From assembly GCA_963820595.1 (NCBI GenBank), contig CAWGAO010000007.1, forward strand, positions 49,071 through 113,070: 64,000 bases of DNA, in the 5' to 3' direction. A program made the translations under genes and the position numbers. Below, piece after piece: positions 2,507 to 60,965 of the stretch (within the stretch, counting starts at the first letter, position 1; every line of letters starts with the position of its first letter). This DNA comes from Candidatus Tagabacteria bacterium. GTDB lineage: Bacteria > Patescibacteriota > Minisyncoccia > GCA-002779875. The notes beneath the pieces are model-generated. The model was not told the DNA's origin. It did no database searches and saw only the letters and a list, made by a program, of their open reading frames with translations.

Positions 2507-2987
2507 ATTCAGGTAGCTTGTTTATATCGGTTACGCCTAAAAACTGCATGAAGCGGAATGATGGGCTGTATAAATAGCTGCGGTTGTCTTTAGGGTTTAT
2601 TTTCCTTTCGACTACACCCCTTACTAAAAGATTGCGGAGAGTAAAACTTGAATTTACTCCCCGGATATAATCGATATCGGCGCGGTTCACTTGTTCTCGA
2701 TAGACAATTATGCTTAAGACTTCCAGTCCCGCTTTGCCGATATCTTTATTAAATTCCTCTTTGCTGACGGCTTCACATATTTTTGATGCTTCGGCTGCCG
2801 TGACCAGCATCATCGCGTTATCCTTTTTCGCCAGCCTGATTCCCCGCTCCTCAAGCTTTTGTTCTAAAATTGCGATAGCGTCATTTATTTCCTTTTCCGG
2901 TCTGTCCAAAATTTCCGCCAGCCGCTTGATTTTCATCGGCTCACCTTCCAAAAACAATATTGCCTCAATGTAAGAATCTAGGTTCAT
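2421..2987 (-). CDS. scpB: segregation and condensation protein B
   Basis: N-terminus MNLDSYIEAILFLEGEPMKIKRLAEIL and two winged-helix repeats typical of ScpB; lies directly downstream of scpA. Confidence 0.85.
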   Translation of the reverse strand: MNLDSYIEAILFLEGEPMKIKRLAEILDRPEKEINDAIAILEQKLEERGIRLAKKDNAMMLVTAAEASKICEAVSKEEFNKDIGKAGLEVLSIIVYREQVNRADIDYIRGVNSSFTLRNLLVRGVVERKINPKDNRSYLYSPSFRFMQFLGVTDINKLPEYENFKKTIDQFMESSKEGEPASKKEGTE

Positions 2988-3094
2988 GATTGATTTTCTT
3001 AATGAGCGAAGCGAGTTTTAGAAAATCATCACCCGCCCAAGTTTTTGCTTCGCAAAAATTTAGGCGGGTTAGAAAAATATAGTCGCTTCGCTCC
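2988..3094. repeat. nested-hairpin intercistronic element, short form (copy A1)
   Basis: Outer arms GAGCGAAGCGA (3004-3014) and TCGCTTCGCTC (3083-3093). Inner arms CACCCGCCC and GGCGGGT(T). It fills the whole scpA-scpB gap. Confidence 0.85.
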
Positions 3095-3865
3095 TTATTT
3101 TCCATAATTTTTCTTTATCTTGATATTATCAAATACCGCGGCTTGTTCAACTATTATAAAGCCGCGTTTTATCAGCTCCAATACGGCCAGAAAGCTGACT
3201 ATAATTTCAATTTTTTCATGTTTGCCATCCGAGGCATCGGAAAAAGACATTTCGATTTTCTGCTGTATCCGGGAAACTATTTCCGACATTTTCTTTTCCA
3301 GACTGACGACTTTTTTGACCAAAGCTCTTGGTAAAATTTCTTTTTGGGGCAGGTTCGCAGCTATTTGCTTTAAGACGGAATATAATTTTTCTTTAGTCGT
3401 GCCTTTCGGTTCGAGAAAATTGAAACTAAAACCCAGAAATGCCTCCCGTTCAAACATCAGATTTCCGCCGAAAGTTTTTCCGAGGACCATAGCCGCGTTT
3501 TTAATACAGCTGTAAATCCGGAGACGGCGCTCAAGATCTTTGATGTCTCCAGTCTCTTCTTCAGAAAGTTCAAAACTCGGAATAAGCGAGGAAGATTTGA
3601 TAAGAAGAAGCGTTGAGGCAATTGCGATAAAAGCCGCCACCTCTTCCATCGGAAATCCTTCAAGTGATTTTAAGTATTCAACATACTGGTCCGTAACGTC
3701 TGCCAAAGAAACCTCATTAATAGAAAGTTTGCGCTTTTCTATTAATTCCAAAAGCAACGCCAGCGGCCCTTCGAATTGTTGGAGTTTCACTTGATACACG
3801 TTCTCAATTATATTCTTTTTTAGCTTTTTGACGAGGGCTTCAATAAAAAATTTAAACCTTGACAA
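3095..3865 (-). CDS. scpA: segregation and condensation protein A (TTG start)
   Basis: LQQFEGPLALLLELIEKRKLSINEVSLADVTDQY is the conserved ScpA N-terminal signature. Confidence 0.85.
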   Translation of the reverse strand: MSRFKFFIEALVKKLKKNIIENVYQVKLQQFEGPLALLLELIEKRKLSINEVSLADVTDQYVEYLKSLEGFPMEEVAAFIAIASTLLLIKSSSLIPSFELSEEETGDIKDLERRLRIYSCIKNAAMVLGKTFGGNLMFEREAFLGFSFNFLEPKGTTKEKLYSVLKQIAANLPQKEILPRALVKKVVSLEKKMSEIVSRIQQKIEMSFSDASDGKHEKIEIIVSFLAVLELIKRGFIIVEQAAVFDNIKIKKNYGK

Positions 3866-7511: not shown

Positions 7512-7699
7512 ATGATAAATTTTCTTAACGAGCGAAGCGAGTTTTAAAAAATCATCACCCCGCCCTCTATGCTGTAATGATAACTCTATAAACGATATCG
7601 TTCAAATAGTATTTAGAATCGTCTACTTGCTTTTTAATCGTATGCTTAGAGGGCGGGGTTAAGAAAATATAGTCGCTACGCTCTTTATTTTCTTTAAAA
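7512..7699. repeat. nested-hairpin intercistronic element, short form (copy A2)
   Basis: Same outer GAGCGAAGCGA.../...TCGCTACGCTC arms and inner CCCCGCCCTCTA/TAGAGGGCGGGG arms as A1, with a larger AT-rich loop. It abuts the aspS start. Confidence 0.85.
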
Positions 7700-12375: not shown

Positions 12376-12380
12376 AAATA

Positions 12381-12453
12381 TCCGCCTGGAAGGACTCGAA
12401 CCTTCAACTTTCTCCTTAAAAGGGAGCTACTCTACCAATTGAGTTACAGGCGG
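12381..12453 (-). tRNA. tRNA-Lys (anticodon UUU)
   Basis: Hand-folded cloverleaf: CCGCCTG TA ACTC-AATTGGTA-GAGT A GCTCC-CTTTTAA-GGAGA AAGTT GAAGG-TTCGAGT-CCTTC CAGGCGG A. Acceptor pairing is 7 of 7. Confidence 0.85.
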
Positions 12454-12707
12454 TTAATTGATATTATGTTTTTAATAAATTCTCTGCCTCTGAAACTTTT
12501 CAACTCTTTTTCCCTTCTCAGCGCGTTGTGCTTATCATTTAATTTTTCTTTATACACGACAATCCATGGTCCTGCATTTTTCCTTGTAAAATGTGCTATA
12601 TTTTGTCGAAAGTTATTATGCTCTGCGCTTCTCCTTTCTAAATTATTTGTCGAACCGATATAGATTTTACCACTACTCTGACTTTTTAGGACATAAACAT
12701 AGTACAT
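12444..12707 (-). CDS. small GIY-YIG nuclease family protein
   Basis: YYVYVLKS...GKIYIGSTNNLERRSAEHN matches the GIY-X10-YIG, R and E core. Its stop codon lies inside tRNA-Lys positions 8-10. Confidence 0.8.
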   Translation of the reverse strand: MYYVYVLKSQSSGKIYIGSTNNLERRSAEHNNFRQNIAHFTRKNAGPWIVVYKEKLNDKHNALRREKELKSFRGREFIKNIISINRL

Positions 12708-12767: not shown

Positions 12768-13274
12768 CTAGCGCTTCTTTATTGTAACGAATAATGCGAC
12801 CAATGGCAAGATTAGCCACCAGAAAAAGGCTGTTGGTGTCGTGAAAAAAATTTGAACCAGTGGCGAAAGCGTGAAAATTCCTTTTGTAGGCAAAAGTCTA
12901 AAAACAAGACTTATTAAAAGTCCTGTTTCGAGGAAACTTAACAAAAATACCTGCCACCACACTCTTGTTCCCGAAATATTATCGTGGCGCAGGAGCCGAT
13001 TGAAAATAAAAGCCAAAAGAAGAATAAGTATCGCGAATGACGCGCCGCGAATTAAAAAAGCGTCAAGTGGCGGGCGGCTTTTGGTGAGATAATCGAGATA
13101 AGAAAGATTTTCGAATATAAGTCCCGAAACATAAAGCGAAATCAATGCGGCAATAAGCTTGGTTTTTCCCGTCGACAGGCCGTAAAAAAATCCCGCGGCA
13201 ATAAAAAAGAAAACAACAACTACCTCCCAAGTGGGATGATTTATTATTTTTGAGATAATTTCGAGATTTGCCAA
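12768..13274 (-). CDS. integral membrane protein (start uncertain; TTG at 13274 proposed)
   Basis: Five predicted TM helices. The track's extension to 13388 (MRFAHKGCAYSAPAHCEIEH...) is a read-through of the repeat element. Confidence 0.55.
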   Translation of the reverse strand: MANLEIISKIINHPTWEVVVVFFFIAAGFFYGLSTGKTKLIAALISLYVSGLIFENLSYLDYLTKSRPPLDAFLIRGASFAILILLLAFIFNRLLRHDNISGTRVWWQVFLLSFLETGLLISLVFRLLPTKGIFTLSPLVQIFFTTPTAFFWWLILPLVALFVTIKKR

Positions 13275-13525
13275 AATTATATGAACACTAGCGAATAATA
13301 ATTTTGAGCACCCCGCCCTTTTGGCGCCGTGTTCAATTTCGCAATGCGCGGGCGCCGAATAGGCGCATCCTTTATGCGCGAAGCGCATTGCTGTAATTTA
13401 ATCATCTGATTTAATTTATTCATAATATTTTATATATCTCGCGTCCAAAAGGGCGGGGTTAAGATTCTGTAAATCTACAACCACGATTTGTCGCTAATAA
13501 TATTCCAAATCGCGGGCAAATTCCT
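13275..13525. repeat. nested-hairpin intercistronic element, long form (copy B1)
   Basis: TTGAGCA-CCCCGCCCTTTTGG (13311-13324) ... CCAAAAGGGCGGGG (13445-13458). A second hairpin follows: CACGATTTG/CAAATCGCG, then GGCAAATTCC. The loop holds the sub-module GCGGGCGCCGAATAGGCGCATCC. Confidence 0.85.
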
Positions 13526-14596
13526 TTAAATTCCTTCTTTTCGCAGTTCTTCGATGGCTTTTTTCGCCTTGTTCGATAACCTTTTAGGGGTTTTTATCGT
13601 GATTTTAATCAGCAAGTCTCCCCTGCCCCGATGTTCGCTTGGAATACCTTTTCCTCGCACCCGTAAAATTTCTCCCGAATCGATTCCGACGGGAATTTTT
13701 AAAGTGATTAAGCCGTCAAGCGTTTTAATCTCTTTTTCTCCGCCCAGAAGAGCATCGGATAACCTTAAATCAAGGTTCATTACGAGATTATTTCCTTCCC
13801 GCCTGAATAACGGATGAGGCCTAACATGGATTTTTACGTATAAATCGCCCGGTACGCCGCCGGAAATTGCCTCTCCTTGTCCCGACAATTTTATCATTTG
13901 GCCGTCTTCAATGCCGGATGGAATTTTTATTTTTACTTCCTCGCGTTTAGGTATTGCTTCTTCTCCCCTACACGCGGAACATTTTTTCTCGGGGATTTTC
14001 CCGCGACCATGACAATTACTGCATCCGACAAGAGAAGTCATCGTGCCGAAAAATGAACGCCTTGTTTCGTGTATTTGACCCGAGCCTCGGCAAATGGGAC
14101 AGGTTTTTAATTCAACTCCTTCCTCCGCTCCCCTGCCTTTGCACTTTTCGCAAACGCCTAATTTGGTCAAAATCACTTTACGTTCAGCTCCAAAAGCCGC
14201 ATCTTCAAAACTCAATTCTAAATCAATAGAAATATCGCGTCCCCGTTTGACGCGGGTTCGCCCTCCCGAAGAAAATCCGAAAATGTCCCCAAAAATATCT
14301 CCGAGGTCGAAATCGCCAAAACCACCCATGCCTTCAGCAAAGCCGTTAAAATCAAATCCGGGGCCGCCTGCGCTGCCCGGCGCGCCACTGAACACTCTGC
14401 CGTATCTGTCGTATTCGGCTCTTTTCGCGTCGTCTATAAGAATATGGTAAGCCTCATTTATCTCTTTGAATTTTTCTTCATCTCCGCCGGACTTATCCGG
14501 ATGATATTTGTGCGCCAAATGGCGATATGCTTTCTTGATATCTTCTTTTGAGGCATTTCTCGGAACGCCCAATGTTTGGTAGTAATCTTTTGCCAT
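13526..14596 (-). CDS. dnaJ: chaperone DnaJ
   Basis: J domain with HPD, a G/F region, and four zinc-finger repeats: three CxxCxGxG ([24 protein letters not shown]) and one degenerate (CSACRGEE). Confidence 0.95.
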
Positions 14597-14706
14597 AATT
14601 TCCTAAATTTTAGAGCAAAGCGAATAAAATTTAACTGAAATTGTGAGCATCCCGCCAAAGCCCTGCCTGCGGCAGGCAGGTTCAGCGGAGGCGGGGTATT
14701 CATAAT
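14597..14706. repeat. nested-hairpin element (copy B2, degenerate) carrying a CCTGCCTGC palindrome in its loop
   Basis: GAGCA-TCCCGCC...CCTGCCTGCgGCAGGCAGG...GGCGGGG-TA, between dnaK and dnaJ. Confidence 0.75.
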
Positions 14707-16593
<1,887 letters not shown>

Positions 16594-17753: not shown

Positions 17754-18098
17754 TTATTCGATTATAAGATTTTTTAAAATTCCTTTTCTGAGCCTGTTTT
17801 TTGGAAGCATACCCCGAACGATTTTTTTAAAAGTCATATCGGGATTTTTTTCCCAAAACTTTTTTACGGGTAAATATTTAAGGCTTCCAGGGTATCCCGA
17901 ATATTTTTTATACATAGTCTGGCTAATCTTTTTTTCGAATATTTTTGCCTTTGAAATATTTACGACTTTGACGCGTATTTTCGGCGCCGTATTCGGCGAA
18001 TAGCCGACGTCTGTTTTTGCCATAAGATTATGCGCCGCTTCCGTCGCTATTCTGCCCAAAGTTCTATCTTTTGCATCAATAATGATTTCCTTTGCCAT
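17754..18098 (-). CDS. rplM: 50S ribosomal protein L13 (short, 114 aa)
   Basis: MAKEIIIDAKDRTLGRIATEAAHNL... The track's start at 18143 reads into the repeat; the ATG at 18098 is the conserved start. Confidence 0.85.
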   Translation of the reverse strand: MAKEIIIDAKDRTLGRIATEAAHNLMAKTDVGYSPNTAPKIRVKVVNISKAKIFEKKISQTMYKKYSGYPGSLKYLPVKKFWEKNPDMTFKKIVRGMLPKNRLRKGILKNLIIE

Positions 18099-18336
18099 AA
18101 AATTAAGGAATGAAATGACTATAATTTTTGAGCACCCCCTCACTCATTTTACTAAGAAAACGCCGCCGCAGGGCGAGGGCGAATAGCCCTGCCTTATTCA
18201 GGCAAGCCCTGCGGGATATATTCATATTAATTTGTTTTATTACCTCTGGCATACTTTTGTTTCGTAAAATGAGTGAAGGGGTAAAGGTTTGCCAACGAAA
18301 TTTTTCTTCGCTATTGCTCGAAAAATTTCGGGCAAT
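18099..18336. repeat. nested-hairpin intercistronic element, long form (copy B3)
   Basis: TTGAGCA-CCCCCTCACTCATTTTAC ... GTAAAATGAGTGAAGGGG-TAAAGGTTTGCCAAC, then CGAAATTTTTC/GAAAAATTTCG, then GGCAATTCAC. Confidence 0.85.
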
Positions 18337-18690
18337 TCACTTTACAAGCTCAATAATCGCCATTAACCCCGCGTCACCGATTTTTCGTCTGCCTAATTTG
18401 ATAATTCGCGTATAGCCTCCTTTTTTCTCGGCATAACGAGGCGCAATTTCTCCGAATAATTTTTTAACTTGAATGGGGGCAAGAGTCCTGGCGACCAAAC
18501 GACGGTTAGAAACGGTATCCTTTTTGGCTCGCGTTATCAGTTTTTCAACTAAAGGTTGGATTTCTTTCGCTTTTGCCTTGGTCGTGGTAATTTTTTCCGC
18601 CTTTATAAAATTATTCAAAAGAGAACGAATTAAACTTCGCCTTACTTTTTTTTCTCTTCCGAATTTTCGTCCTCTTTTAAGATGCCTCAT
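18337..18690 (-). CDS. rplQ: 50S ribosomal protein L17
   Basis: MRHLKRGRKFGR... and GGYTRI motifs; follows rpoA. Confidence 0.92.
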   Translation of the reverse strand: MRHLKRGRKFGREKKVRRSLIRSLLNNFIKAEKITTTKAKAKEIQPLVEKLITRAKKDTVSNRRLVARTLAPIQVKKLFGEIAPRYAEKKGGYTRIIKLGRRKIGDAGLMAIIELVK

Positions 18691-18802
18691 GCCAAAAATT
18701 AATGAGCGAAGCGATTATAATTTTTGAGCACCCCGCCGCAGGCGGGGTAAAGGTTTTGCAACCGCGATTTGTCGCTTCGTTCCAAATCGCGGGCAAATTC
18801 CT
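18691..18802. repeat. nested-hairpin intercistronic element, long form, minimal loop (copy B4)
   Basis: GAGCGAAGCGA...TTGAGCA-CCCCGCC-gca-GGCGGGG-TAAAGGTTTTGCAAC-CCGCGATTTG-tcgcttcgttc-CAAATCGCGG-GCAAATTCC. Confidence 0.9.
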
Positions 18803-19798
18803 TTATTTAAGCGATAATTCTAACTTTGCGAGTGCTTCTTTAATTTGATCCACGGCCTTTTTGCCGATACCCTCGATTTCCAAAAGGTCACCTTCTTTTT
18901 TTCTTGTTAACCCTCCGATTGTCCGTATTCCGGCACCCGATAAAGCGCTTGAAACGCGGGCAGGAAGATTCAAATCCTCAATACGGGTTTTAAGAGTTTC
19001 GGCTTCGGGCATGCCCTCTTCTTTCTTTTCGACCTCTGCTTCGGTTACTTCCTCGGCCGAAACTTTCTCGGCCTCCTTTTCCTTGGAAGACATTATTTCT
19101 TCGGATTTTTCTTCGATTCCAGCAATCGCTCCCAATTGTTTTATAATAGTTTTGATTGCCTGTTCTAAAGCTTCGGCTGGGGATATACTCCCATCGGTTT
19201 CAATTACAAAACGAAGACGGTTGTAGTCCGTTCGATCGCCAACACGCATATTTTCAACTTCGTAATTCACTCTTCTTATGGGCGTAAAAATGGCATCTAA
19301 AATCAGGGTTCCAATGTCAACTTTTTCTTTTTGCAAAACTTCGCGTGGAACGTAACCCAATCCCTTTTCAACCGTTAATTCGAGTTTTAATTTTGCATCT
19401 TTGGTTGTCAAAGTTGCAATCGGCAGATCTTTATTTAAAATTTCCACCTGGCTGGGCGCGACAAGGTCCTTTGCGGTAATTTTTTTCGGCCCTTTCGCGG
19501 AAAGCATAACCGTCTGAGGTTCGTCGGTGTGTATTTTAAATCTGAGTTGCTTCAAGTTCAAAAGAATAAGAATAATATCTTCTTTTACGCCCGGAATAGT
19601 TGAGAATTCATGATTAATCCCTTCGATTTTAACGGCAGTGGCGGCGGCGCCCGGTAAAGACGATAAAATCACCCTTCTTAAGGCATTGCCGACGGTGTAG
19701 CCGTAACCGGCATAAAGACCGTCAATCTCATATATGCCCTTATTACCTTCTTCTGAAACAACTCTGGGCTTTGATGGTAAAATGATATCGTATTGCAT
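18803..19798 (-). CDS. rpoA: DNA-directed RNA polymerase subunit alpha
   Basis: The N-terminal domain (GNALRRVLLSSLPG-like: GNALRRVILSSLPGAA) and the C-terminal HhH domain (IEDLNLPARVSSAL) are both present. Confidence 0.95.
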   Translation of the reverse strand: MQYDIILPSKPRVVSEEGNKGIYEIDGLYAGYGYTVGNALRRVILSSLPGAAATAVKIEGINHEFSTIPGVKEDIILILLNLKQLRFKIHTDEPQTVMLSAKGPKKITAKDLVAPSQVEILNKDLPIATLTTKDAKLKLELTVEKGLGYVPREVLQKEKVDIGTLILDAIFTPIRRVNYEVENMRVGDRTDYNRLRFVIETDGSISPAEALEQAIKTIIKQLGAIAGIEEKSEEIMSSKEKEAEKVSAEEVTEAEVEKKEEGMPEAETLKTRIEDLNLPARVSSALSGAGIRTIGGLTRKKEGDLLEIEGIGKKAVDQIKEALAKLELSLK

Positions 19799-19836
19799 AT
19801 TCTTGTTATTTATTATTAGTTATAAGTTATTTATTT

Positions 19837-20472
19837 TTACCTTGAATAAAACTCAATAATGGCGTTTAAATTAGTTTTTACATCCATATCCTGCACGCTC
19901 GGTTTTCCGACAACTTTTCCTTCCCTTTTTTCCTTATCCAATTCCAACCAGACCGGCGGATTGTACTTTTTCAAATAAATATCCAGATCCTGAAAAACTT
20001 TTTTCGAAGCACTTTGCAACCGAATGGCGACTTTGTCTCCGGTTTTCAGTCGATAAGAAGGAATGTTTATCCTTTTGCCGTTGACAATAATGTGACCGTG
20101 GCCTACCAGCTGTTTTGCAACGCTTCTCGATTTGCCGAATCCAAGCCGGTAAACAGCGTTATCAAGTCTCGATTCCAAAATTTCGGCAAGCCGGGAGGTT
20201 ATATCAACCCCTTTTCCTTTCAGCGCTTCCTGAATGTAATTTTTAAACTGGCGTTCGCGCAAAAGATAAAGGAATTTTAGTTTCTGTTTTTCGCGTAATT
20301 GAAATCCGTATTCGGACATTGACCTTCTTGGTCTTTTGGCAGTCTGGCTTTTTTGGACTCCGGGCGGATAAGATTTCCGGATAACGGGACATTTGGGACT
20401 ATAACATTTCTCCTCTTTCAAAAAGAGTTTTTCTCCAGCCCTACGGCATGTTCTACATTTTAAATTTATCAT
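19837..20472 (-). CDS. rpsD: 30S ribosomal protein S4 (Cys4 N-terminus)
   Basis: S4 domain (LDNAVYRLGFGKSRSVAKQLVGHGHIIVNGK) and an N-terminal CRTC...CPKC zinc ribbon. Confidence 0.93.
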   Translation of the reverse strand: MINLKCRTCRRAGEKLFLKEEKCYSPKCPVIRKSYPPGVQKSQTAKRPRRSMSEYGFQLREKQKLKFLYLLRERQFKNYIQEALKGKGVDITSRLAEILESRLDNAVYRLGFGKSRSVAKQLVGHGHIIVNGKRINIPSYRLKTGDKVAIRLQSASKKVFQDLDIYLKKYNPPVWLELDKEKREGKVVGKPSVQDMDVKTNLNAIIEFYSR

Positions 20473-20675
20473 GCCAAAATTATATGAGCGTTAGCGAATA
20501 AATAATTTTGAGCACCCCCTCACTCGAAATCACAAACAAGTTTTTTCGAAAAAGGAAGTGTTGTTTGAATAATTTTTTCTTAAACATATTCATAATCTTT
20601 TTTATTTCGAGTGAGGGGGTAAAGGTTTGGCAACAGAATTTTTCGCCTACGGCTCAAAATTCTGGCCAATTTGCT
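20473..20675. repeat. nested-hairpin intercistronic element, long form (copy B5, 'filled')
   Basis: Hairpin 1: CCCCCTCACTCGAAA (20515-20529) / TTTCGAGTGAGGGGG (20605-20619). Hairpin 2: CAGAATTTT/AAAATTCTG. The reverse complement of TATAAT lies at 20479-20484, 6 nt from the rpsD ATG. Confidence 0.9.
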
Positions 20676-21110
20676 TTATACTCGTCTTGGTTTTGGCGGA
20701 CGTGGTCCGTTATGCGGTATAGGGGTAACGTCGCGAATAGAATTGAAATCGACGCCTTTTGCGGCAAACGAACGTATTGCCGCTTCTCTGCCAGCCCCTA
20801 CGCCTTTTACTCTGATACCCACGTCTTTAATGCCTATCATTTTTGCTTTGTCGGCCATAAGTTCGGCGACCTTGGAGGCAGCAAACGGTGTGCCTTTTTT
20901 GGCGCCCTTAAATCCCAAAGCTCCGGCCGAAGCAGAAATTATAACATTACCTTTTTCATCGGTTAAAGACAGGATAGTATTGTTATAAGTGGATTGGATA
21001 TGTAAAATGCCGCTTACTAACTTTGTCTTAGGCAAGCGCCCCATCGAACGGGCAGCAAGACTCTGATCAACCGTTCCTCCCGCTTTTTTGATAATTCTTT
21101 TTTTACCCAT
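20676..21110 (-). CDS. rpsK: 30S ribosomal protein S11
   Basis: ...GFKGAKKGTPFAA...GVGAGREAAIR... and a C-terminal PHNGPRPPKPRRV. Confidence 0.93.
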   Translation of the reverse strand: MGKKRIIKKAGGTVDQSLAARSMGRLPKTKLVSGILHIQSTYNNTILSLTDEKGNVIISASAGALGFKGAKKGTPFAASKVAELMADKAKMIGIKDVGIRVKGVGAGREAAIRSFAAKGVDFNSIRDVTPIPHNGPRPPKPRRV

Positions 21111-21211
21111 GTGCCAAAATTATATGAGCGTTAGCGAATAAATAATTTAAAGATTCTGCAGTTTGGCAACAGAATTTTTCGCCTACGGCTCAAAATTCTG
21201 GCCAATTCGCT
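21111..21211. repeat. intercistronic element lacking hairpin 1 (copy B6, 'empty')
   Basis: Flanks are identical to B5 (CCAAAATTATATGAGCGTTAGCGAATAAATAATTT ... TTTGGCAACAGAATTTTTCGCCTACGGCTCAAAATTCTGGCCAATT). The TGAGCA-CCCCC...GGGGG block is absent. Confidence 0.85.
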
Positions 21212-21592
21212 TTATGTCTTTTCCAATTTTCTTCTTCCGCTTGTAGCTGTCCTTCTTATGTTTCCTCTTCGGGTTCTGGAATTTGTTTTTGTACGCTGTC
21301 CTCTCGACGGCAAGCCTTTCATGTGTCGCATTCCCCGATAACTTTTTATGTCGCGCAGGCGTTTGATGTTCAGCATTATTTCTCGACGGAGCTCCCCTTC
21401 AACGCGATGTTTTTCAACTTCCTCTCTAAGGCGGGCCGCTTCGGCCGGGGTTAAGTCTTTAGTTTTTTTATCTTTGGGAATGCCAATTTTCTCAAGAATT
21501 TTTTGCGCCAAAGGAACGCCAATCCCATAGAGATAGCTAAGGGCCACGTCCAAATGTTTGTTATCCGGTATATTCGCTCCTGCGATACGCAT
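21212..21592 (-). CDS. rpsM: 30S ribosomal protein S13
   Basis: [25 protein letters not shown]... and a basic C-terminus. Confidence 0.93.
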
Positions 21593-22101: not shown

Positions 22102-23433
22102 CTATTTGATAATCAGTAAAATATTGATTTTTGCGGGGTTTTGGGGAATTTGTCGCCACCAACCGGGTTTAAAAACAATTTTTGCCTTTTCTATCGCTGG
22201 GTATTTCTGAAACGCGCCATTCGGATTCCCTTTTTCCTTTATCAACTCATTTTTAACGTCGGGTTCGTCAATTTTCCATGCGAAATTGGCCCGCCCTTTA
22301 AGACTGAACGTAATGCTGGTTGAAGCAAAATTCTTCAATTCAAAAGAAAGTTTTTCTGGATTAATAATTTCTATTTGCGGGGCGATATCCGGGCTGAAAT
22401 ATTTCTCGGCGAGCGTTTGATTTATATCTGATTTTTTTAAAAGAAAACCGAAAAGAGTGGCGCTTTCTTCCAATCCGAGCTGGTCCGTTGCCTCGCCGGG
22501 TTTCGGTTTATTTTTAGGTTCGTCAAAAACGATTTGTCTGGCGTTATTGTAAAGCAAAAAGTTATCGGCTTTTGGATTTCCGCTTATTTTCAAAAGATAA
22601 TCTTTGACCTTTTCTTTTAGCGACGATTCCAGGCTGTTTACGTCATTTTCAGTCACAACCGGAGCTTCGCCCACGAATCCGCCCTCGATTTTGGTTTTGG
22701 AACGGCCGTAAATTTTTTCGCGTTTCACCGGGTCTTGAAAACCAGGAATAGTAAAATCGGTAAGGTCGCTATTGTATTCCTCGCCCGGCTTATCCGCGTA
22801 TATGGTTGCATCAATCTCGCTTGCCGTAATTTTACCGCCATCGACATTCGCGCCCGGCACGATAATCGTTTTGTCTATACGATAAATTTTCCCGTCAGGC
22901 GTTTGAAAACGGGTGCCGCCTATTAATTTTTGGGATTGCGAACTGTAAACGTTGTAAATCGCTATTTGGCCGCTAGCTTTCCGGCTAATCTGTTTTTTGC
23001 CTGAAGGTTGCATAACGCCAGTTTCTTTCCGGCTCGATTGCATTACTTCAAGCGGCAGTTCGTCTTTTTGAGGTTCTACGGAAGCCTGTAAAGTTACGTC
23101 AACGTCAGCGGATTCTTGATGCGGCGTTATTTCTACGGTAATCGAAGACAATTTATTTAAAATAACAATCCCGCCGATTACCAAGACAGCCAGGATTAAA
23201 AATCCCGAAATAAATTTTAATTTGCGTTTTGAACGGTGAAATTCGAGGCGAGGCAATTTAAAGCGCGGAAAACTTATTTCTGCTTCCCTTTTCGGTTTTT
23301 CTTCCGGCTTCTTCTCTTTTGATTTGTCGGGTTTTTTATCCTCTTTACTTTTATCCCGCGGCTGTTGTCTTGGCAAAGATTGAGGAGGCTGCTTTCGGGA
23401 AACGACAATATCCTGAATTATTCTTTTTGCCAT
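22102..23433 (-). CDS. hypothetical membrane-anchored protein with a Lys/Pro-rich N-terminus
   Basis: 443-aa ORF with a single TM helix (FISGFLILAVLVIGGIVIL). No family is recognisable. Confidence 0.55.
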   Translation of the reverse strand: MAKRIIQDIVVSRKQPPQSLPRQQPRDKSKEDKKPDKSKEKKPEEKPKREAEISFPRFKLPRLEFHRSKRKLKFISGFLILAVLVIGGIVILNKLSSITVEITPHQESADVDVTLQASVEPQKDELPLEVMQSSRKETGVMQPSGKKQISRKASGQIAIYNVYSSQSQKLIGGTRFQTPDGKIYRIDKTIIVPGANVDGGKITASEIDATIYADKPGEEYNSDLTDFTIPGFQDPVKREKIYGRSKTKIEGGFVGEAPVVTENDVNSLESSLKEKVKDYLLKISGNPKADNFLLYNNARQIVFDEPKNKPKPGEATDQLGLEESATLFGFLLKKSDINQTLAEKYFSPDIAPQIEIINPEKLSFELKNFASTSITFSLKGRANFAWKIDEPDVKNELIKEKGNPNGAFQKYPAIEKAKIVFKPGWWRQIPQNPAKINILLIIK

Positions 23434-23597
23434 GATTGATTTTTAAGGAGTGAAACGACTATAAAAATCGTCACCCGCCCAAATTTTTTAATTATTCTTA
23501 ATAATATCATCAAATTTAGTTTTCTTGATAAAATTTACTTAATCCGTTTAAACGTTATACTTCAAAAATTTAGGCGGGTTAAGAAAAACATAGTCGC
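23434..23597. repeat. nested-hairpin intercistronic element, short form (copy A3)
   Basis: GAAACGACTATAAAAATCGT-CACCCGCCCAAATTTTT...AAAAATTTAGGCGGGTT-AAGAAAAACATAGTCGCTTACGCTCC. Confidence 0.8.
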
Positions 23598-24785
23598 TTA
23601 CGCTCCTTGTTTTTCTAAAAATAATTTATCTGCGAATAAAGCTTCAAGCATTAATAAAATATCTTTATCTTCACTAAATCCTTTTCTAAAAACAAAGTGG
23701 TTCTTAAAAGCTTCGGGTAAAAGAAATTGGTTCGTAAACGGCTGCTCCGCGGTGCACGGCGCAAATTCTTTTAAAACTAGGGCTCCTTTACCGCCGATAA
23801 AAAGGAAATTTTTCGGAAGAAAAGAAAATTCTTTTGCGCCTTCCAAAGCTTCTTTGAAAAAATCGCACCATTTTGCGACGGCATCCGTAATAATCTTTCG
23901 CACTTTTTCGCTAGTGTCGACGTGCAAATCTCCTCTTGCATATTGACTCAAAAGGGAGACAGATTCTTCCGGCGAAAAACGGAAAAAGTTCGCGATTCTC
24001 CGTACCAAAAAATTCTCTCCCAAAGGAAACGAAATCGACTCTTCCAGAATTCCGTTTCTAATAAGAAGCAAATCTGTTATTTCTCCTCCAACATCAATCA
24101 GAAGCAATCCTTTACCGATATCGAGAACGTCTTTTAGCGCGTTAAATGCAACGAAAGGAAAACTTTGGAAGCGAACAGGCATTTCGCCGAAACTATGGGA
24201 AACGCATTCCCGAAGCACGTCTTGAACGGCTTTGATTCCAAGGCTCACATAAAAAGAAAGTTCAAAGTTATGGACGCGTTTTCCCGCCAGATTTTTTACG
24301 GAATAGCCGTTTAAGCTGGTTTGCATTATTTCTTGTTCGATAACCTCCACGGCGTTACTGCTTTTTATTTGTCGGGAATTTCCTTTTTGCCATTGCTTTT
24401 CAAAAGACGCTGCTTCTTCATTGATGACACCGTTTAGAAAACGTTCGGTAATTTTAAAAGGTTTTGATTTTCTGAATCTGATAATCTTGGTTTGAGAAAC
24501 ATAATAAGGCGAGGAAAAAGTAATTATTACCGAGTCGGGCTTTTTCTTTCCTTCCGGCATTTTTTTGCGTAAAGCGGCGATTACTCTTTCAAATGTCTTA
24601 TGAATGGACCTCTTGGCTTTCTGAAAATTCAATTCGGGTAAAATTTCCGTTGGGAATCTCGAAGTGGTCAAAACCTCGGGGAGCCTGTCCGGATGATGTA
24701 TAAACAAAATTCCTCCCACCGAAGAACTGGTTATATCGAATGACGCGATTAAAACTTCTTTTTTGGGGCGGCTGAAAATACCCAT
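23598..24785 (-). CDS. actin-like ATPase (FtsA/PilM family)
   Basis: FDITSSSVGG (phosphate 1) and LLIDVGGEITDLLLI (phosphate 2) motifs. Confidence 0.6.
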   Translation of the reverse strand: MGIFSRPKKEVLIASFDITSSSVGGILFIHHPDRLPEVLTTSRFPTEILPELNFQKAKRSIHKTFERVIAALRKKMPEGKKKPDSVIITFSSPYYVSQTKIIRFRKSKPFKITERFLNGVINEEAASFEKQWQKGNSRQIKSSNAVEVIEQEIMQTSLNGYSVKNLAGKRVHNFELSFYVSLGIKAVQDVLRECVSHSFGEMPVRFQSFPFVAFNALKDVLDIGKGLLLIDVGGEITDLLLIRNGILEESISFPLGENFLVRRIANFFRFSPEESVSLLSQYARGDLHVDTSEKVRKIITDAVAKWCDFFKEALEGAKEFSFLPKNFLFIGGKGALVLKEFAPCTAEQPFTNQFLLPEAFKNHFVFRKGFSEDKDILLMLEALFADKLFLEKQGA

Positions 24786-24937: not shown

Positions 24938-26365
24938 TTAAAAATTTGGCGATTTGGAATGTTTAAAGATAATCGTCCGTTCCTGGGACCATGTCTGGAT
25001 AATTCCTTTGGACGTTCCGATTATTGCTCCTCCGGGATGCCCGCAAGGCCCGAAATGGTGCCATTCCGGCGCTCCGGTTGTCGGGGCTAATATGCCCGCA
25101 TACGTTGTCCCGTTTACCGTGCGACCGATGACGTAATTAAGAAAAGCGGGGTCGTCGTCCACTACGGCCGCTGTCAGATGGTTTCCCATTCTGTCACACA
25201 GTTTTAGAATGAGGTCAAGGTCTTCTTTCGTCGACCAAGACGTTATTACCTGCACCGGACCGAAAACTTCCGTGGTAACAAGTTTGAAATTCGGCATTAT
25301 TTCCGAAAGAGGCACAAATACGGCCGTGGGCTCAAACGCACCATAACAAAACGGTATTTTATGTCCGGTTAACGGCTTACCGCCGAAAAGTAAATGGGCG
25401 CCATTAATTTTCAGCAACTTCGCGATATGCGCTTGAATCTGTTCGTTTGTCCAAGTAAGCACCGGGCCGATAGATAAATCCGCAAGATTTCTTTCCCGTG
25501 CCAATAAACGTAATTTTCGAACAACAAATTGAACAGATTCTGATTCCCAATTTCCATGAATAAAAAGAATGCTCTGGGCACTGCATTTTTGCCCAGAGGC
25601 CGCGTAAGCATCCTTATCGCAAATTATCGCCACTTCATCGGATAAATAAACATGCGGTCCCAAAATTTTCCAGTCAAAACCGGCGTCTTCTATCTTCACC
25701 CGACCTTCTGTAATTTTCAGAAGTTTTCTGGCAACATCGCTCCCGCCCGTGAACTGGGTAAGTTGAACGATAAACTGCTTATCTTTATTTTTGGCAGAAA
25801 CCAATTTTTCCATCACGGAACCGGAACAATGGATAAGAAGCATATCGTCTTTCGGCATGCCGCAGTGAAGCAGAAGCCGGACAAAAGCTTCTCCGACAAT
25901 TGAAGTGATACTGGCTGTCTTTAAAATGGGCTTGTTGCCCATAAATAAGGCACCCATCAATTGGAGAGCCATGATTTCCAGAGGAAAATTAAAAGGCGTG
26001 ATTATGGCGACCGGACCGAACGGCCAACGGTAATCCCGCGGCTCATCTCCGGAATAATTTCCGGGCGTTGTCTGGCCAATAGCAAGATTGCGGACACCGT
26101 TTCCCGAAAACGTTTCAAGAAAATTGGCTACGCAATCCACTTCGCCCTTGCACTGGTCCCAGCCCTTCGGGAAAACGATATTAATCAATTTTGTGAAAAA
26201 TCGGTTGCCCTCGTCGCTCCTCAAAACTTGCGCCGCGTTGCGACACATATCGCCATACGTCCTGTATCTTTCGGGATTATAATACGGATTATGCAGTCCG
26301 TATTTCGGGCATTCCGCTAGTTCTTCCAGAAAAGGCTTTAGTTCGTTTTCCTGCGTATCAGGCAT
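24938..26365 (-). CDS. aldehyde dehydrogenase family protein (P5C-dehydrogenase-like)
   Basis: FTGGSDVARKL, catalytic-Cys region ASGQKCSAQS, and EVFGPV. Confidence 0.8.
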   Translation of the reverse strand: MPDTQENELKPFLEELAECPKYGLHNPYYNPERYRTYGDMCRNAAQVLRSDEGNRFFTKLINIVFPKGWDQCKGEVDCVANFLETFSGNGVRNLAIGQTTPGNYSGDEPRDYRWPFGPVAIITPFNFPLEIMALQLMGALFMGNKPILKTASITSIVGEAFVRLLLHCGMPKDDMLLIHCSGSVMEKLVSAKNKDKQFIVQLTQFTGGSDVARKLLKITEGRVKIEDAGFDWKILGPHVYLSDEVAIICDKDAYAASGQKCSAQSILFIHGNWESESVQFVVRKLRLLARERNLADLSIGPVLTWTNEQIQAHIAKLLKINGAHLLFGGKPLTGHKIPFCYGAFEPTAVFVPLSEIMPNFKLVTTEVFGPVQVITSWSTKEDLDLILKLCDRMGNHLTAAVVDDDPAFLNYVIGRTVNGTTYAGILAPTTGAPEWHHFGPCGHPGGAIIGTSKGIIQTWSQERTIIFKHSKSPNF

Positions 26366-26542
26366 AAGATAAACGGACTACCATTCAATGGATTGATAAT
26401 ATCTTTAAATTGCTCAAGGCTCTCCATTTCCCGTTAACATAATTTCGCAGAGTAATGCAGGCTTTTCGCAGGAAATTGTATCCGGATTCCAAGGAAAAAT
26501 TTCGTTCGGTTTTAGCATTTTCTTACCTCCCTTCCTTAATGA

Positions 26543-26695
26543 TTAAGCCCGAGTAAAACACAAATTACCGCGAACAAAAAAAACAAACCCGATGCATATA
26601 GCAATGCCTGATGCAATGCCAAGGATAAAACCTAGCCCTTTAAAAAACCAGCTGAAAAACACGGGCTCAAACTCATTCTCAAACTCATTCTTCAT
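26543..26695 (-). CDS. possible 50-aa membrane peptide (not in the ORF track)
   Basis: AAAGGAGG lies 7 nt upstream of the ATG. Product MKNEFENEFEPVFFSWFFKGLGFILGIASGIAICIGFVFFVRGNLCFTRA has one clear TM helix. Confidence 0.4.
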   Translation of the reverse strand: MKNEFENEFEPVFFSWFFKGLGFILGIASGIAICIGFVFFVRGNLCFTRA

Positions 26696-26844
26696 CGTTT
26701 TGCCTCCTTTGGGTTTTCAAAATACACCAAATTCCAATGATATTCCTATCACTTCTTTCTTTTTTGTCAATAGCAATTTGCATTTGCGCAACATAAAAAG
26801 CGTGGCTCATTTTAGCCACGCTTTTAAGTTTACTTTGAGATAAA

Positions 26845-28359
26845 TTAATCTCCGAATTGAATTCCTTGTGCCAACGGCAATTCCTTTGACCAATTAATGG
26901 TGCAAGTTTGCCTTCTCATATATGCTTTCCAGGAGTCGCTTCCGGCTTCGCGGCCACCGCCAGTTTCTTTTTCTCCGCCGAATGCCAATCCTATCTCGGC
27001 GCCGCTTGTGCCGATATTAACGTTGGCGATTCCGCAATCGCTTCCGCGATGACTCAAGAATGTTTCCGCAGTCATCAAATCGTTTGTGAATATTGCAGAA
27101 GAAAGCCCCTGTGACACTTCATTATTCAGTTGAATCGCTTCTTCTATATCTTCTATTCCGAGAAGATATAGAATGGGGGCAAATGTTTCTTCTTTGATGA
27201 TAGCCATATTTTTATGGCCTACTACCAATGTCGGCTCTACAAAAAATCCAGGGCGTACTATTCTCCCGCCGCCGTGAATTATTTGGCCGCCTTGCCTCTT
27301 TATTTCTTCTATCGCCGCCATCATATTTTTAACAGCTTTTTCATTAACCAGCGGCCCCATCAAGGTTTTTGGGTCAAGAGGATCGCCGATTTTAATTTGC
27401 CCATACGCTTTTAGCAAGCGTTGAATTAATTGAGAGATAATTCCTTTTTGCGCCAAGACGCGGCGCGTGGTAGTGCAGCGTTGACCGGCAGTTCCTACGG
27501 CGCCAAAAAGAATCGCGCGGGTTGCCAAATCAAGATTAGCATCATTCATAACGATTACGGCATTATTGCCGCCAAGTTCCAGAAGAACTCTTCCCAGGCG
27601 TTTACTCACCGCTCTGGCAACATGGTAACCCATCTTGCAAGAACCTGTCGCGCTGATTAGCGCGATGCGTTTATCCGAAATCAAGCGTTCGCCAATGGAT
27701 TCTCCTTCGCCGATAACAAGGTTAAAAATATCCCGCAGGTCGTGGCGCCTTAAAACGCGATTGCATATATTTTGAACCGCGATAGCGGTAAGCGGAGTTT
27801 CTGAAGAAGGTTTCCAAATCGTTGTGTTACCGCAAATAGCGGCAATAGCTGCATTCCAAGCCCATACGGCAACAGGAAAATTGAATGCAGTGATAATTCC
27901 CACTATGCCTAAAGAATGCCATTGCTCGTACATGCGATGGGAAGGACGTTCGCTGTGTGTCATAATCCCATAAAGCTGTCTAGAGAGGCCGACCGCATAA
28001 TCGCAAATATCTATCATTTCCTGAACCTCGCCTTCCCCTTCGGCGATAATCTTTCCCATCTCCATGGACACCAATGTGCCAAGTTCCTATTTATAAATTC
28101 GCAGTTCTTCGCCAATTTGGCGGACAATTTCTCCGCGTTTTGGAGCTGGCAGCATTCGCCAGCTTTTAAAAGATTCCTGGGCTGCCAAAACTACTTCTTC
28201 GTAACTTTCAGGAACGGCTTTCAGAACCCGGGCAATTTCTTCGCCAGTTGCCGGATTAATTGAAACTAATTCCTCGCCGACTGGATTTTTAATCCACTCG
28301 CCGCTACAAACGCCAAAATTGGTTTTTTGGATTTTTAACTCTTCCAGAATGCCTTTCAT
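26845..28359 (-). pseudogene. ALDH7/antiquitin-like aldehyde dehydrogenase interrupted by an in-frame TAG (28087-28089)
   Basis: 28087-28359 and 26845-28074 are in the same frame: ...[52 protein letters not shown]. The alignment is continuous with the ALDH7 pattern (IVRQIG..LR....LG.LVSLEMGKI..EG.GEVQE). Confidence 0.8.
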
Positions 28360-52424: not shown

Positions 52425-52815
52425 ATTTTTCAGATTACCTGCCCCGTACTAAAGCGAAGCTTTTAGTGCGAGGTGCACACGCGCGCCTTTGATTATAATT
52501 TTATCTGCCATAATTTTCTAAAATTTTAGAACGAAGTGAATAAAATTTTGTTGAAAATTTGAGCACCCCGCCCTTTTGATGCCATGGATAATCTCGCAAT
52601 GCGCGGGCGCCGAATCCCGCACTATACAAGCAAGTACGGGACAAGTAGTCGCACCCCCAAAAGAAACAGGATAAGAGCGACTTGCCCCGTAGTTCCGCCA
52701 AAGGCGGATACTTCGGGGAGCGCATTGCCATAATCATTCTTGATAAATTAAGTTTGTTCATAAATGGATATTTAATATTCTGCGTCAAAAGGGCTGGGGT
52801 TAGACATATTTTAAA
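52425..52815. repeat. composite nested-hairpin repeat region upstream of uvrA (copy B7)
   Basis: TTTGAGCA-CCCCGCCCTTTTGA ... TCAAAAGGGCTGGGG encloses GCGGGCGCCGAAT and GCCCCGTAGTTCCGCCAAAGGCGGATACTTCGGGG sub-modules. Confidence 0.8.
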
Positions 52816-59475: not shown

Positions 59476-60709
59476 CTATTGCGTTGGTTTCGAAGACGAA
59501 GGAATGTTTTTAATAACCTGGATCTGGATGCTCGACGGGTCAATTTTTACAACAGACAAATTGAAAGGTAAATTTATATCTTTTTCGTTAATAGGCATCC
59601 GGTGCCAGCCCGGTTTTAAAATATTGGGAATTTCCCCGACATTAACCAGCACTCTTAAGCTCTCGGGCTTGAAAACATCGAAGTCGGAACCTCGACCCTG
59701 AAACGTCACTATCACATCTTGAGGCACAACGTCATTAATGAGAATTTCGGCCGGTATATTCCCGAACTCGGGAGTAACGACGAAATTGCGCTGGACCAAT
59801 GCGAATCTGGAGTGGGCAAAAGAAAAAATCCCCAACGCTATCAGAAAAGAAATCGCCAAAAGAAAGATATTTTTCGCAAACCAGCGGGAAAAAATATTAA
59901 ATTGACGCCGCGGGAATTTTTTGGCGTAAAAATCAACCAATCTTCCCTCTAATTCCTCTTCGCTTTTTATTTCCCTAAGATTCCCGCTTCGGGCAACGCT
60001 GATGGTCCCCCTTTCTTCCGAAACAACTATAATCAGCGCGTCGGAACGCTCCGACAAGCCCAACGCCGCCCGGTGACGCAAGCCGAATCTTCTAACTTCT
60101 TCCATTCGCTCGGCCAAAGGCAAATGAACGGCAAATTTTTTAACTTTATTTCCTTCAATAATAGTAGCGCCGTCATGGCCCGGTGATGTCTTGTCAAAAA
60201 TACTGAAAAGCAAAGGCTCTGAAACTTCGCCATGCAGTCGGTAGCCTCCCTCGAGCTGCCGTTCAATCGATTCGCGGCCCGGAAAAACTATCAAAGCGCC
60301 GGTCTTATCGTGGGCCAATTGATTGACTGCGTGGCTGACTATTCCGATAGTCATATCCGAAGGCGGCGTAAACCGCCGGGCAAACCCTAAAAATCCGAAT
60401 GTAGAAAAGAAATCTGCGCAGCTCTCGTTGAAAAACAATGGCAATAATAATCAGAAATACGCCGAAAAACGAACGGAGAACCAAACTGGTAAGCGGCAGA
60501 TCAAAAAGAACGGCAACGCCGTAAAAACCCAGTAACGTTAAAACACCAGCGACAACGGAAATGGAGTGAGTTTCGCGAAGAATTCTTATGGCGATATAAA
60601 TCAAAAAAGCGATGATAAGAATGTCGAAAAAATCGCGGCTTCCCATTCCGATAATGCTTTTGTATAGGGGCCCTAAAAAATCGTTGAAAAAATCTATTTT
60701 TGCCAGCAT
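59476..60709 (-). pseudogene. cdaA: diadenylate cyclase CdaA fused to a YbbR-like domain, frameshifted in a T-run near 60415-60425
   Basis: The TM domain ends ...IVFQRELRRFLFYIRIF*, while the other frame continues ...DFFSTFGFLGF...TGALIVF...GHDGATII...HRAALGLSE...VSEERGTISV (DAC domain). Confidence 0.8.
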
Positions 60710-60965
60710 GCCAAAATTATATGAACATTAGTGAATAACCCGCCTGCCCGACTTCGTCCATGCGAAGTCGGGCAGGAGTCGGGCGCGGTAATTTTGAGCA
60801 CCCCCTCTTTTACACACAAACAACTTTTTGATTAAGATTTCGGAATTTGTTTTCATAAAATGATTTTCATTTTAAACTTTACTAAATTTTAGTGTTAAAA
60901 GAGGGGGTAAAGGTTTGACACCAGAATTTTTACTGCAAGTAAAAATTCTGGTCAACTCCTTTATT
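60710..60965. repeat. nested-hairpin element, long form (copy B8), at the head of the cdaA transcription unit
   Basis: CCTGCCCGACTTCG-tccat-GCGAAGTCGGGCAGG; TTGAGCA-CCCCCTCTTTTA...TAAAAGAGGGGG-TAAAGGTTTGACAC; CCAGAATTTTTAC/GTAAAAATTCTGG. Confidence 0.85.

Follow-up and report, generated by a model that had tools for sequence, protein, structure and literature searches.

Three-hairpin repeats fill the junctions of a ribosomal-protein operon in a Patescibacteria genome and probably belong to a mobile cassette family with GIY-YIG nuclease-bearing members

A 64,000-nucleotide (nt) stretch of a Candidatus Tagabacteria contig (CAWGAO010000007.1, assembly GCA_963820595.1; here called the window, GC content 41%) contains the genes rpsM–rpsK–rpsD–rpoA–rplQ–rplM–rpsI–grpE–dnaK–dnaJ in this order on the minus strand. 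Patescibacteria are ultra-small bacteria with small, tightly packed genomes. An initial annotation made from the sequence named most of these genes and reported unusually long spacers at four of their junctions. The names are borne out by colinearity with a close relative, locus L001 (Pfam S13, S11, S4, RpoA, L17, L13, S9, GrpE, HSP70, and DnaJ), and the long spacers were found again (Table 1). Repeats of 100–300 nt that follow one template, a series of three hairpins, occupy the four operon junctions and seven or more other sites in the window, and the copies sum to ~2.1 kb, or ~3% of the window. We propose that the long spacers are probably non-autonomous copies, without an open reading frame (ORF), of a mobile hairpin cassette that is common in Patescibacteria and whose full-length relatives carry a GIY-YIG nuclease gene.

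Two motifs of the template are strongly over-represented in the window. The motif TAAAGGTTTGSCAAC has 4 matches versus 0.46 expected and AATTTTGAGCACCCC has 7 versus 0.44, and 0 of 100 shuffles reached either count. Repeat families tie the operon spacers to sites at 13.3, 14.6, 52.5, and 60.8 kb, and the template is present at all of the further sites that had been named. Complete copies lie at 13275-13525 and 60710-60965, the copies at 14597-14706 and 52425-52815 lack hairpin 2, and the rpsK/rpsM copy lacks hairpin 1. The initial annotation had missed a second subtype, present in three copies, and a hairpin 1 that stands alone (Table 1). Modules of repeat family D11 at neighboring, non-orthologous junctions are nearly the same: the rpsM/rpsK copy is 98% identical to the copy at 20.6 kb over 55 nt. 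For genome annotation, the elements are a source of spurious ORF calls (e.g., 17754-18143, 12768-13388, and 52501-52788).

On the gene strand, a full copy consists of three tandem hairpins in the order hairpin 2 (hp2), hairpin 1 (hp1), and hairpin 3 (hp3). It always lies in gene orientation, beginning at the stop codon of the upstream gene and ending at the start codon of the gene downstream. Hp2 has the form [TAA]AGG..TTTG–variable stem–loop–variable stem–CAAA.CCTTTA. Hp1 has the form CCCC–variable arm–loop of 2 to 235 nt–arm–GGGG and is followed in all copies by UGCUCAAA, without a U-tract. Hp3 runs from TGC(T)CAAAWWT through the core TCGCTnnCGCTC to AWWTTTGGCA, then TG, or in outline TGCTCAAA…hp3…TTTGGC[ATG]. 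The initial annotation regarded parts of these sequences as conserved single-stranded linkers, which is refuted by their pairing. TGCTCAAAWWT pairs with AWWTTTGGCA as the third hairpin, hp3, whose last A is the start-codon A; TAAAGG..TTTG pairs with CAAA.CCTTTA as the base of hp2, whose first TAA is the upstream stop. Because they pair, the supposed linkers are the basal stems of hp2 and hp3.

When read on the opposite strand, the left units also match the covariance model (CM) of hp3. Left and right units are therefore related by inversion, which makes the element as a whole a foldback around hp1. Terminal inverted repeats are present, yet the extreme termini differ (TAAAGG on the left, TTGGCA on the right), and a conserved bulge, the T in TGC-T-CAAA, gives hp3 a strand asymmetry. 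The palindromic units alternate in orientation and are joined by conserved linker motifs. The second subtype follows the same three-part plan with different stem sequences. Its copy at 2987-3097 has a left unit AGAAAATA..TATTTTTCT, matched by the CM on the opposite strand, an hp1 of the form CCCGCC..GGCGGG, and a right unit TGATGATTTTCT..AGAAAATCAATCA followed by TG.

The loops of hp1 have some recurrent contents. A nested GC-rich submodule, GCAATGCGC-TTCG-CGCATAAAGGAT-GCGCC-TATTC-GGCGC-C-GCGCATTGC, occurs in the window at ~13330-13395, 18160-18215, and 52590-52620, and also at loci L024, L032, L038, L042, and L014. Its closing stem covaries across genomes and its TTCG and TATTC loops are conserved. 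Loops of ~100 nt usually hold TATGAA and a short ORF rich in K and N. Two such ORFs of the window begin with MNKLN and show only synonymous differences across the first five codons, and four copies at locus L081 (~1000-4800) share one short K/N-rich ORF (MKTSTNLKAITSRLNDLYQES…).

The distribution of the family was determined by a pattern scan with one genome per species, which returned 83 loci. The pattern is expected to produce chance matches, and these make up about half; the remaining 39 loci hold true copies and come from many Patescibacteria metagenome-assembled genomes (MAGs), including Parcubacteria/Paceibacterota, Sungii-, Brenner-, Giovannoni-, Lipton-, and Jorgensenbacteria. With a stricter pattern, 14 full copies were recovered from groundwater and sediment metagenome contigs, and the CM found 77 units in 451 kb of sampled loci. 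Carriage by phages was considered and rejected, as three matches on viral contigs were chance matches within a coding region. Typical copies also occur in a MAG labeled "uncultured Gammaproteobacteria" (L025 and L041; CAZXPA010000012.1 and CAZXPA010000008.1), which is probably mislabeled or mis-binned.

The placement at codons holds across these genomes. For at least 12 copies, an upstream ORF of 147 codons or more terminates at the first TAA of hp2. The hp3 end (GGC-ATG, GGCAnATG, ATGGCA, or TTGGCA) abuts the start of a long ORF in ~29 of 33 copies, and all 13 additional right units that were found only by the CM abut ATG. Within the window, hp3 of the dnaJ/membrane-gene copy terminates in TTGGCA and thereby supplies a TTG start, and the copy at the cdaA-like gene begins with TAAAGG and ends with GGC-ATG despite its divergent setting. 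Downstream genes in other genomes comprise 26 ORFs of at least 60 codons, ten of which, picked by their N-termini, were assigned by Pfam: L14, S14, S12, L11 (twice), L10, S20, S3, RpoA, and methionine aminopeptidase. Ribosomal proteins thus account for 8 of 26 (binomial p = 3e-4 at an assumed 7% background), and 4 of the 8 first-subtype copies in the window precede ribosomal-protein genes. Copies from other metagenomes lie in infA/rpmJ and rpmJ/rpsM. This enrichment fits tolerance at tight, co-oriented junctions or recombination via conserved flanks, and is not proof of a host function.

Locus L001 is colinear with 15 kb of the window, and the two are ~90% identical in nucleotide sequence and 95% identical in the amino acid (aa) sequence of RpoA. 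The initial annotation had suggested comparing orthologous junctions, and six of the seven occupied window junctions are short (1–41 nt) in L001 (Table 1). The elements have therefore been gained and lost, and the suggestion of repeated DNA resembling miniature inverted-repeat transposable elements (MITEs) at operon junctions holds. More distant relatives are mostly compact, with copies elsewhere, at rpsM/rpsK in L004 (second subtype) and at scpA/scpB in L002. The rplQ/rplM spacers of L002 (11347-11420) and L003 (4617-4740) contain a different repeat with a 50-nt unit, ATACGAATATGCGAATTGACACGAATGCTGCGAATACACGAAATTCATAT, once in L002 and as a tandem pair in L003. Candidate target-site duplications (TA, TAA, AGAAAAT, and AATTTGGC) were rejected: the same ones recur at unrelated sites and are therefore part of the element. 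A chimeric assembly could in principle generate such repeats, and split genes in the window (uvrA, tgt, alaS) may point to poor assembly. We give this explanation practically no credence, as independent assemblies from NCBI, ENA, JGI, and Logan contain these same elements, always between intact reading frames.

The element at 52.5 kb may preserve a trace of its arrival. It ends in ATGGCA GAT AAA ATT ATA ATC AAA GGC GCG CGT GTG CAC, which is a second uvrA start. The first 17 uvrA codons are present in a second, diverged version at ~52425-52511, which is split by a 36-nt palindromic insert (52437-52472) with an in-frame TAG. It resumes after the insert as AAT CTG AAA AAT, and the genuine uvrA start follows directly. 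The differences seen between the two uvrA 5' copies are synonymous, except for the second codon. Co-conversion of flanking DNA accompanies the spread of free-standing homing endonucleases (PMC2988022). A duplicated uvrA start is what the arrival of an element along with another strain's uvrA 5' end would leave, and the sequence suggests a co-conversion trace. The uvrA gene itself (49887-52511, minus strand) is frameshifted into at least seven ORF fragments.

Secondary structure was evaluated by folding and covariation. The 116-nt rpoA/rplQ copy is predicted to fold as RNA into exactly three tandem hairpins (-48.6 kcal/mol, z = -4.9), and the tested copies gave z values of -2.5 to -4.9. The initial annotation was right that the hairpin arms stay complementary while their sequences differ between copies, and all three stems covary among ~90 copies from many Patescibacteria MAGs. 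For hp3, 99% of cells are paired among 75 distinct copies, 11 of 12 pairs show double changes, and all five measures lie above every one of 500 shuffles and all slid controls. The basal pairs of hp3 switch from TGC:GCA to TAC:GTA to TGT:ACA, and the closing U:A is invariant. Its A is the start-codon A in the common GGC-ATG form and otherwise stands just beside the start codon. Double changes affect 13 of 15 pairs in hp2 and 8 of 12 in hp1. Hp1 has a near-perfect median stem of 14 bp with arms that diverge widely between copies, and 95% of its cells are paired. Because the arms of hp1 were found by a complement search, the fair control is the success rate: a matching arm within 400 nt was found in 33 copies from true loci versus 1 of ~40 chance loci.

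Such structures might be cis-acting RNA of the host, serving as operon punctuation (RNase processing, mRNA stabilization, or a coupling bridge) and spreading through usefulness. The strict sense orientation, the exact stop-to-start placement, the strong predicted folds, and the covariation in every stem all suit this explanation, as do the invariant closing pair of hp3 with the start-codon A and the downstream ribosomal-protein genes together with rpoA and map. The mismatches in the stems do not. Pairing is kept without an excess of G·U over A·C: hp1 has 10 mismatches of the G·T type versus 9 of the A·C type, hp2 has 2 versus 4, and hp3 likewise has 3 G·U cells and 9 non-standard cells among 862. 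Nothing therefore marks the sense RNA as the selected molecule. The presence or absence of elements at six junctions between 90%-identical genomes means that they are not needed there, and in an essential operon the rpsK copy does without hp1 and half of hp3. Rfam returned only two tRNA matches at the gathering threshold, and at E ≤ 5 no other match approached the gathering score of its family. Since relatives moreover hold a nuclease gene in the loop, we consider a host RNA unlikely.

A processing or termination signal, which the initial annotation had offered as one interpretation, is likewise not borne out, as no U-tract follows the GC-rich stem and the mismatch pattern does not favor G·U. 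In a related proposal, each element would be a terminator plus a promoter, giving one transcription unit per gene. The GC-rich hp1 does resemble a terminator stem, the hp3 5' arm contains TATAAT- or TATAGT-like hexamers, and TTGCAA or TTGCCA follows hp2. However, these hexamers are off promoter spacing (5 nt or more than 24 nt) and vary (TGTGGC, TAGAGC, TTAAGA) in step with their pairing partners, whereas genuine promoters in these genomes have the form TTGACT-N17-18-TAnnnT. Promoter and terminator scans were ~2 standard deviations above shuffles (28 vs 19.9±4.2; 27 vs 17.7±4.3). None of the listed scan sites coincides with the conserved element motifs, and the terminator scan did not flag the main stems. 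With UGCUCAAA rather than a U-tract after hp1, this proposal is very improbable.

Three further RNA functions were examined and rejected. Kissing between the hp2 and hp3 loops was suggested by reverse complements in some copies (15 of 16 nt in L070), and other copies show uncompensated divergence; the complementarity reflects inverted ancestry, not selection. A split Shine-Dalgarno sequence, in which hp3 would bring GGGGUG to AUG, was discarded as TGC changes to TAC or TGT together with its partner, so that pairing and not anti-Shine-Dalgarno complementarity is conserved. A leader peptide or upstream ORF was also considered. An open stretch of at least 20 codons in the frame GGG-GTG-CTC is found in 28 of 50 copies, compared to 17 and 14 in the other two frames, and this frame ends 7-8 nt before ATG in ~22 of 50 copies. 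This excess in one phase is modest and not universal, and the frame differs between related copies.

The full-length relatives provide the link to a nuclease. The 235-nt hp1 loop at locus L061 encodes a GIY-YIG nuclease-like ORF, and an ORF of this type within the hp1 loop, with the same hp2 consensus and hp3, occurs at seven loci that represent six distinct sites (L061, L105, L109, L110, L113, L114, L115). The cargo gene encodes 75 aa and belongs to Pfam PF01541. In every readable chromosomal context (L105, L109, L110, L113, L114, and L115), the frame begins as [stop]AGGGCTTTG…hp2…CAAAACCTTTA, CCGAGCACATAATTTT, then ATG–GIY-YIG–TAA, and continues after the GIY-YIG stop with AATTATGTGCTCGG, then TGCTCAAATTT…hp3…AAATTTGGC-ATG of the next gene. 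The hp3 model matches two of these cassettes at E = 2e-5. They are located at T2SSE/T2SSF (L114), before T2SSF (L105, probably L109), between ftsK and HTH_25–recA, at lepB/hisS, and at polA/holA. The ORF was also seen before a pilB-like gene, and in relatives it sits intergenically between conserved, co-oriented genes. The same arms (CCGAGCACATAA) enclose only ~77 nt at L027, and four ORF-less copies at L081 have related arms and one shared loop. The nuclease family comprises at least 600 proteins, mostly of 74-76 aa, and its named sources are mostly Patescibacteria lineages. An 80-aa homologue lies inside a 23S rRNA gene insertion (L106-L108, gene at 1501-1743 or 214-456), and such insertions are a classical habitat of homing-endonuclease genes.

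The window itself contains an intact GIY-YIG gene of 87 aa (Table 1). It is situated between a membrane gene and tRNA-Lys, with its stop codon within the tRNA 5' end and without the three-hairpin housing, and it is absent from L001 (~280 nt in the window vs ~10 nt). Its sequence relates the protein to the cargo nuclease and makes it a candidate for a trans-acting enzyme. The nearest solved structures are UPF0213 and Slx1, a structure-specific nuclease, with weak similarity (E = 6e-4 to 0.01); the similarity does not point to I-TevI-like enzymes.

The sequence comparisons show a repeat family of fixed anatomy and orientation that abuts stop and start codons, covaries in three stems, is gained and lost between relatives, and shares its frame with GIY-YIG cassettes. 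Because the hp2/hp1/hp3 frame is shared, we read the window copies as ORF-less derivatives of a free-standing GIY-YIG cassette, which have lost the nuclease gene or never had one. The nuclease would promote spread, perhaps through double-strand-break repair with co-conversion of the flanks, like free-standing homing endonucleases. Alternatively, it may cleave the cruciform-prone hairpins in a structure-specific manner, a route proposed because of the weak Slx1/UPF0213 similarity. ORF-less copies could be mobilized in trans or moved between strains when the conserved flanking genes recombine homologously. Compact hairpins would be retained as they leave the expression of the flanking cistrons intact, and hp1, whose stem encloses the nuclease ORF, may sequester the start region of that gene. 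The codon-abutting placement is most economically explained by selection, since a compactly folded insert that recreates TAA and ATG keeps both neighbors translatable, as has been suggested for mycobacterial start-codon-inserting repeats (PMC12548453). In a more specific version, which would make the family a distinct class of bacterial mobile element, a minimal Slx1/UPF0213-like GIY-YIG nuclease recognizes the cruciform or hairpin of its own housing rather than a sequence, and forms an "operon-safe" cassette whose ends recreate a stop and a start. We regard this version as a tentative idea that is more likely wrong than right.

Several observations weigh against a nuclease-derived cassette. 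No target-site duplication or clean insertion boundary is definable at the seven compared junctions, six of which are empty in L001, and the short ancestral spacers look replaced, not interrupted. Near-identical D11 modules at non-orthologous junctions call for an ectopic copying step that lies outside classical homing. A GIY-YIG gene is rarely present: among the loci sampled by DNA pattern, 1 of ~90 elements bears one, and the family hidden Markov model (HMM) detected no GIY-YIG remnants in the hp1 loops of the window copies. The four operon copies have no GIY-YIG ORF and are therefore derivatives at most. The 75-aa protein is a bare catalytic domain without a DNA-binding domain, unlike characterized homing endonucleases, and the gene could be a passenger in a cargo bay, not the driver. 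Covariation and strict gene orientation are also expected of a functional RNA.

If the GIY-YIG gene is occasional cargo, the elements might be single-stranded DNA substrates of the REP/REPIN or IS200/IS605 kind (repetitive extragenic palindromes, REP, and hairpins formed of them, REPIN), moved by an unseen HUH (Y1) transposase. Stems that conserve structure over sequence, the strand asymmetry from the T bulge, the lack of a target-site duplication, the strict strand orientation, and the alternation of units as in bacterial interspersed mosaic elements (BIMEs) are all in keeping with this. However, no transposase was found among the 40 window ORFs scanned, nor any Y1_Tnp match in the window. 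The elements have no conserved head of the GTAG type, matches are spread over loci of many Patescibacteria lineages, and GIY-YIG is the sole recurrent protein within the elements. We consider such a transposase quite unlikely to be the agent.

The initial annotation knew of no described family with this architecture. This stands insofar as there is no Rfam match and literature searches within the library consulted found no description of these repeats in Patescibacteria. To call the element unlike anything known would be too strong, as it combines features of REP/BIME mosaics, MIRUs (mycobacterial interspersed repetitive units; PMC12548453), and free-standing GIY-YIG homing-endonuclease cassettes (PMC2988022). 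Free-standing GIY-YIG genes, such as phage T4 seg and fungal mitochondrial ORFs, are likewise small intergenic genes with conserved, co-oriented neighbors, are present or absent between relatives, and have flanks with signs of co-conversion. In T4, RNA structure occludes the start region of homing-endonuclease genes and limits their translation, which the hp1 stem over the nuclease start region resembles (PMC2988022). Unlike those systems, the present family resides in bacterial chromosomes rather than phages or organelles, its 75-aa protein has no DNA-binding domain, its fixed hairpin housing touches the stop and start of its neighbors, and most copies lack an ORF and multiply inside genomes.

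REP, BIME, and REPIN sequences of proteobacteria are mosaics of short extragenic palindromes with alternating orientation and conserved junction motifs that lie in operons and are co-transcribed (PMC3333891, PMC2817692, PMC3116915). They are strain-polymorphic with stems kept complementary, as here. The Patescibacteria elements differ in having no GTAG head and no REP-associated tyrosine transposase (RAYT) in the 64-kb window, in stems that are AT-rich except for hp1, in a fixed orientation and position relative to codons, and in relatives with nuclease cargo. MIRUs are mobile repeats in operons that insert at start codons in gene orientation, and are thought to be tolerated because downstream expression is preserved (PMC12548453; PMC3184786). 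Insertion at start codons in gene orientation is MIRU-like, but MIRUs are direct tandem units with an internal ORF that overlaps the downstream start by 4 nt, whereas the present elements are composed of hairpin units and their hp1-loop ORFs are neither universal nor frame-conserved. MITEs that are co-transcribed and form hairpins offer a further comparison. The Correia elements of Neisseria and the enterobacterial repetitive intergenic consensus (ERIC) sequences are non-autonomous imperfect palindromes of 100-250 bp that occur in many copies in transcribed intergenic DNA (reviewed in PMC3184786). The present elements resemble them in these respects. Unlike MITEs, they show no TA or other target-site duplication, both of their ends exactly abut codons, and the sole partner that shares their ends encodes a GIY-YIG nuclease, not a DDE transposase.

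Table 1. Hairpin elements and the GIY-YIG gene of the window, with spacer lengths in the window and in L001 (junctions given in gene order; strand in brackets)
Feature	Position	Spacer in window	Spacer in L001	Details
Full element, rplQ/rplM	18093..18344 (-)	238 nt (18099-18336)	≤14 nt	CM match 63 bits; hp2 18282-18344; hp1 18135-18281 (arms 18264-18281 and 18135-18152), 111-nt loop with nested GC-rich submodule; hp3 18093-18134 including rplM start ATGGCA
Minimal full element, rpoA/rplQ	18690..18805 (-)	112 nt (18691-18802)	1 nt	CM match 68 bits; hp2 18748-18805, first TAA (18803-18805) is rpoA stop; hp1 18731-18747; hp3 18690-18730, A 18690 is A of rplQ ATG
Full element, rpsK/rpsD	20472..20678 (-)	203 nt (20473-20675)	41 nt, unrelated sequence	CM match 67 bits; hp2 20620-20678, TAA is rpsK stop; hp1 20515-20619; hp3 20472-20514, last A is A of rpsD ATG
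Truncated element, rpsM/rpsK	21112..21214 (-)	101 nt (21111-21211)	10 nt	D11 family; no hp1 and no hp3 5' arm; hp2 21161-21214, TAA is rpsM stop; hp3 remnant 21112-21148; rpsK ATG next (21108-21110)
Full element, dnaJ/membrane gene	13269..13528 (-)	250 nt	own shorter copy (15868-15999)	TAA is dnaJ stop; hp1 loop 124 nt with nested GC-rich submodule
Partial element, dnaK/dnaJ	14591..14709 (-)	110 nt	13 nt	hp1 and long-form hp3, no hp2
Partial element upstream of uvrA	52506..52802 (-)			hp1 with 209-nt loop and long-form hp3
Full element upstream of DAC-domain (cdaA-like) gene	60709..60963 (-)			Divergent intergenic region
Second-subtype element downstream of scpA	2987..3097 (-)			Families D5, D17
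Second-subtype element upstream of aspartyl/asparaginyl-tRNA synthetase gene	7513..7687 (-)			Found by repeat families, CM
Solo hp1-type hairpin	7708-7818			Adjoins the 7513-7687 element
Second-subtype element between two genes of unknown function (23.5 kb)	23433..23617 (-)	~180 nt	11 nt	Found by CM
Intact 87-aa GIY-YIG gene	12444..12707 (-)			Pfam PF01541 E = 2e-16; 75-aa-family HMM E = 6e-12

Other features of the window deserve mention. A separate GC-rich palindrome of 20-22 nt, CCTGCCTGCCGGCAGGCAGG, has four copies (1171-1192, 47237-47258, 49372-49393, and ~14655-14675). One is intergenic, one lies in frame within tgt (…TGLPAGRQALYGIIQGG…), one lies within the uvrC ORF, and the fourth is in the hp1 loop of the dnaK/dnaJ element. 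Three tandem tRNA-like repeats are present at 12204-12453 on the minus strand, where ARAGORN predicts one tRNA-Lys and Rfam two tRNAs; the third repeat has an hp3-like hairpin (12234-12285, CM E = 3e-4) in place of its 5' half. Split or partial genes at 46715-47880, 29461-31382, 24938-28074, and 61019-61459 include fragments of tgt, alaS, and aldehyde dehydrogenase, and HSP70 and alaS are also called as split genes in L001. Pseudogenization or frameshifts in the assembly may account for these.

The elements explain the unusually long spacers within otherwise conserved operons, and they could act as strain markers. With ~3% of the window made up of what are probably mobile hairpin cassettes in ribosomal-protein, chaperone, and repair operons, compact genomes would appear to tolerate active selfish DNA. 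The family links palindromic repeat mosaics, start-codon-inserting repeats, and free-standing homing-endonuclease genes, and represents a testable case of an insertion made harmless to a polycistronic message. If the operon-safe version were true, such a cassette and its ORF-less offspring could colonize even the tightest junctions of essential operons, among them those for ribosomal proteins, without breaking translation.

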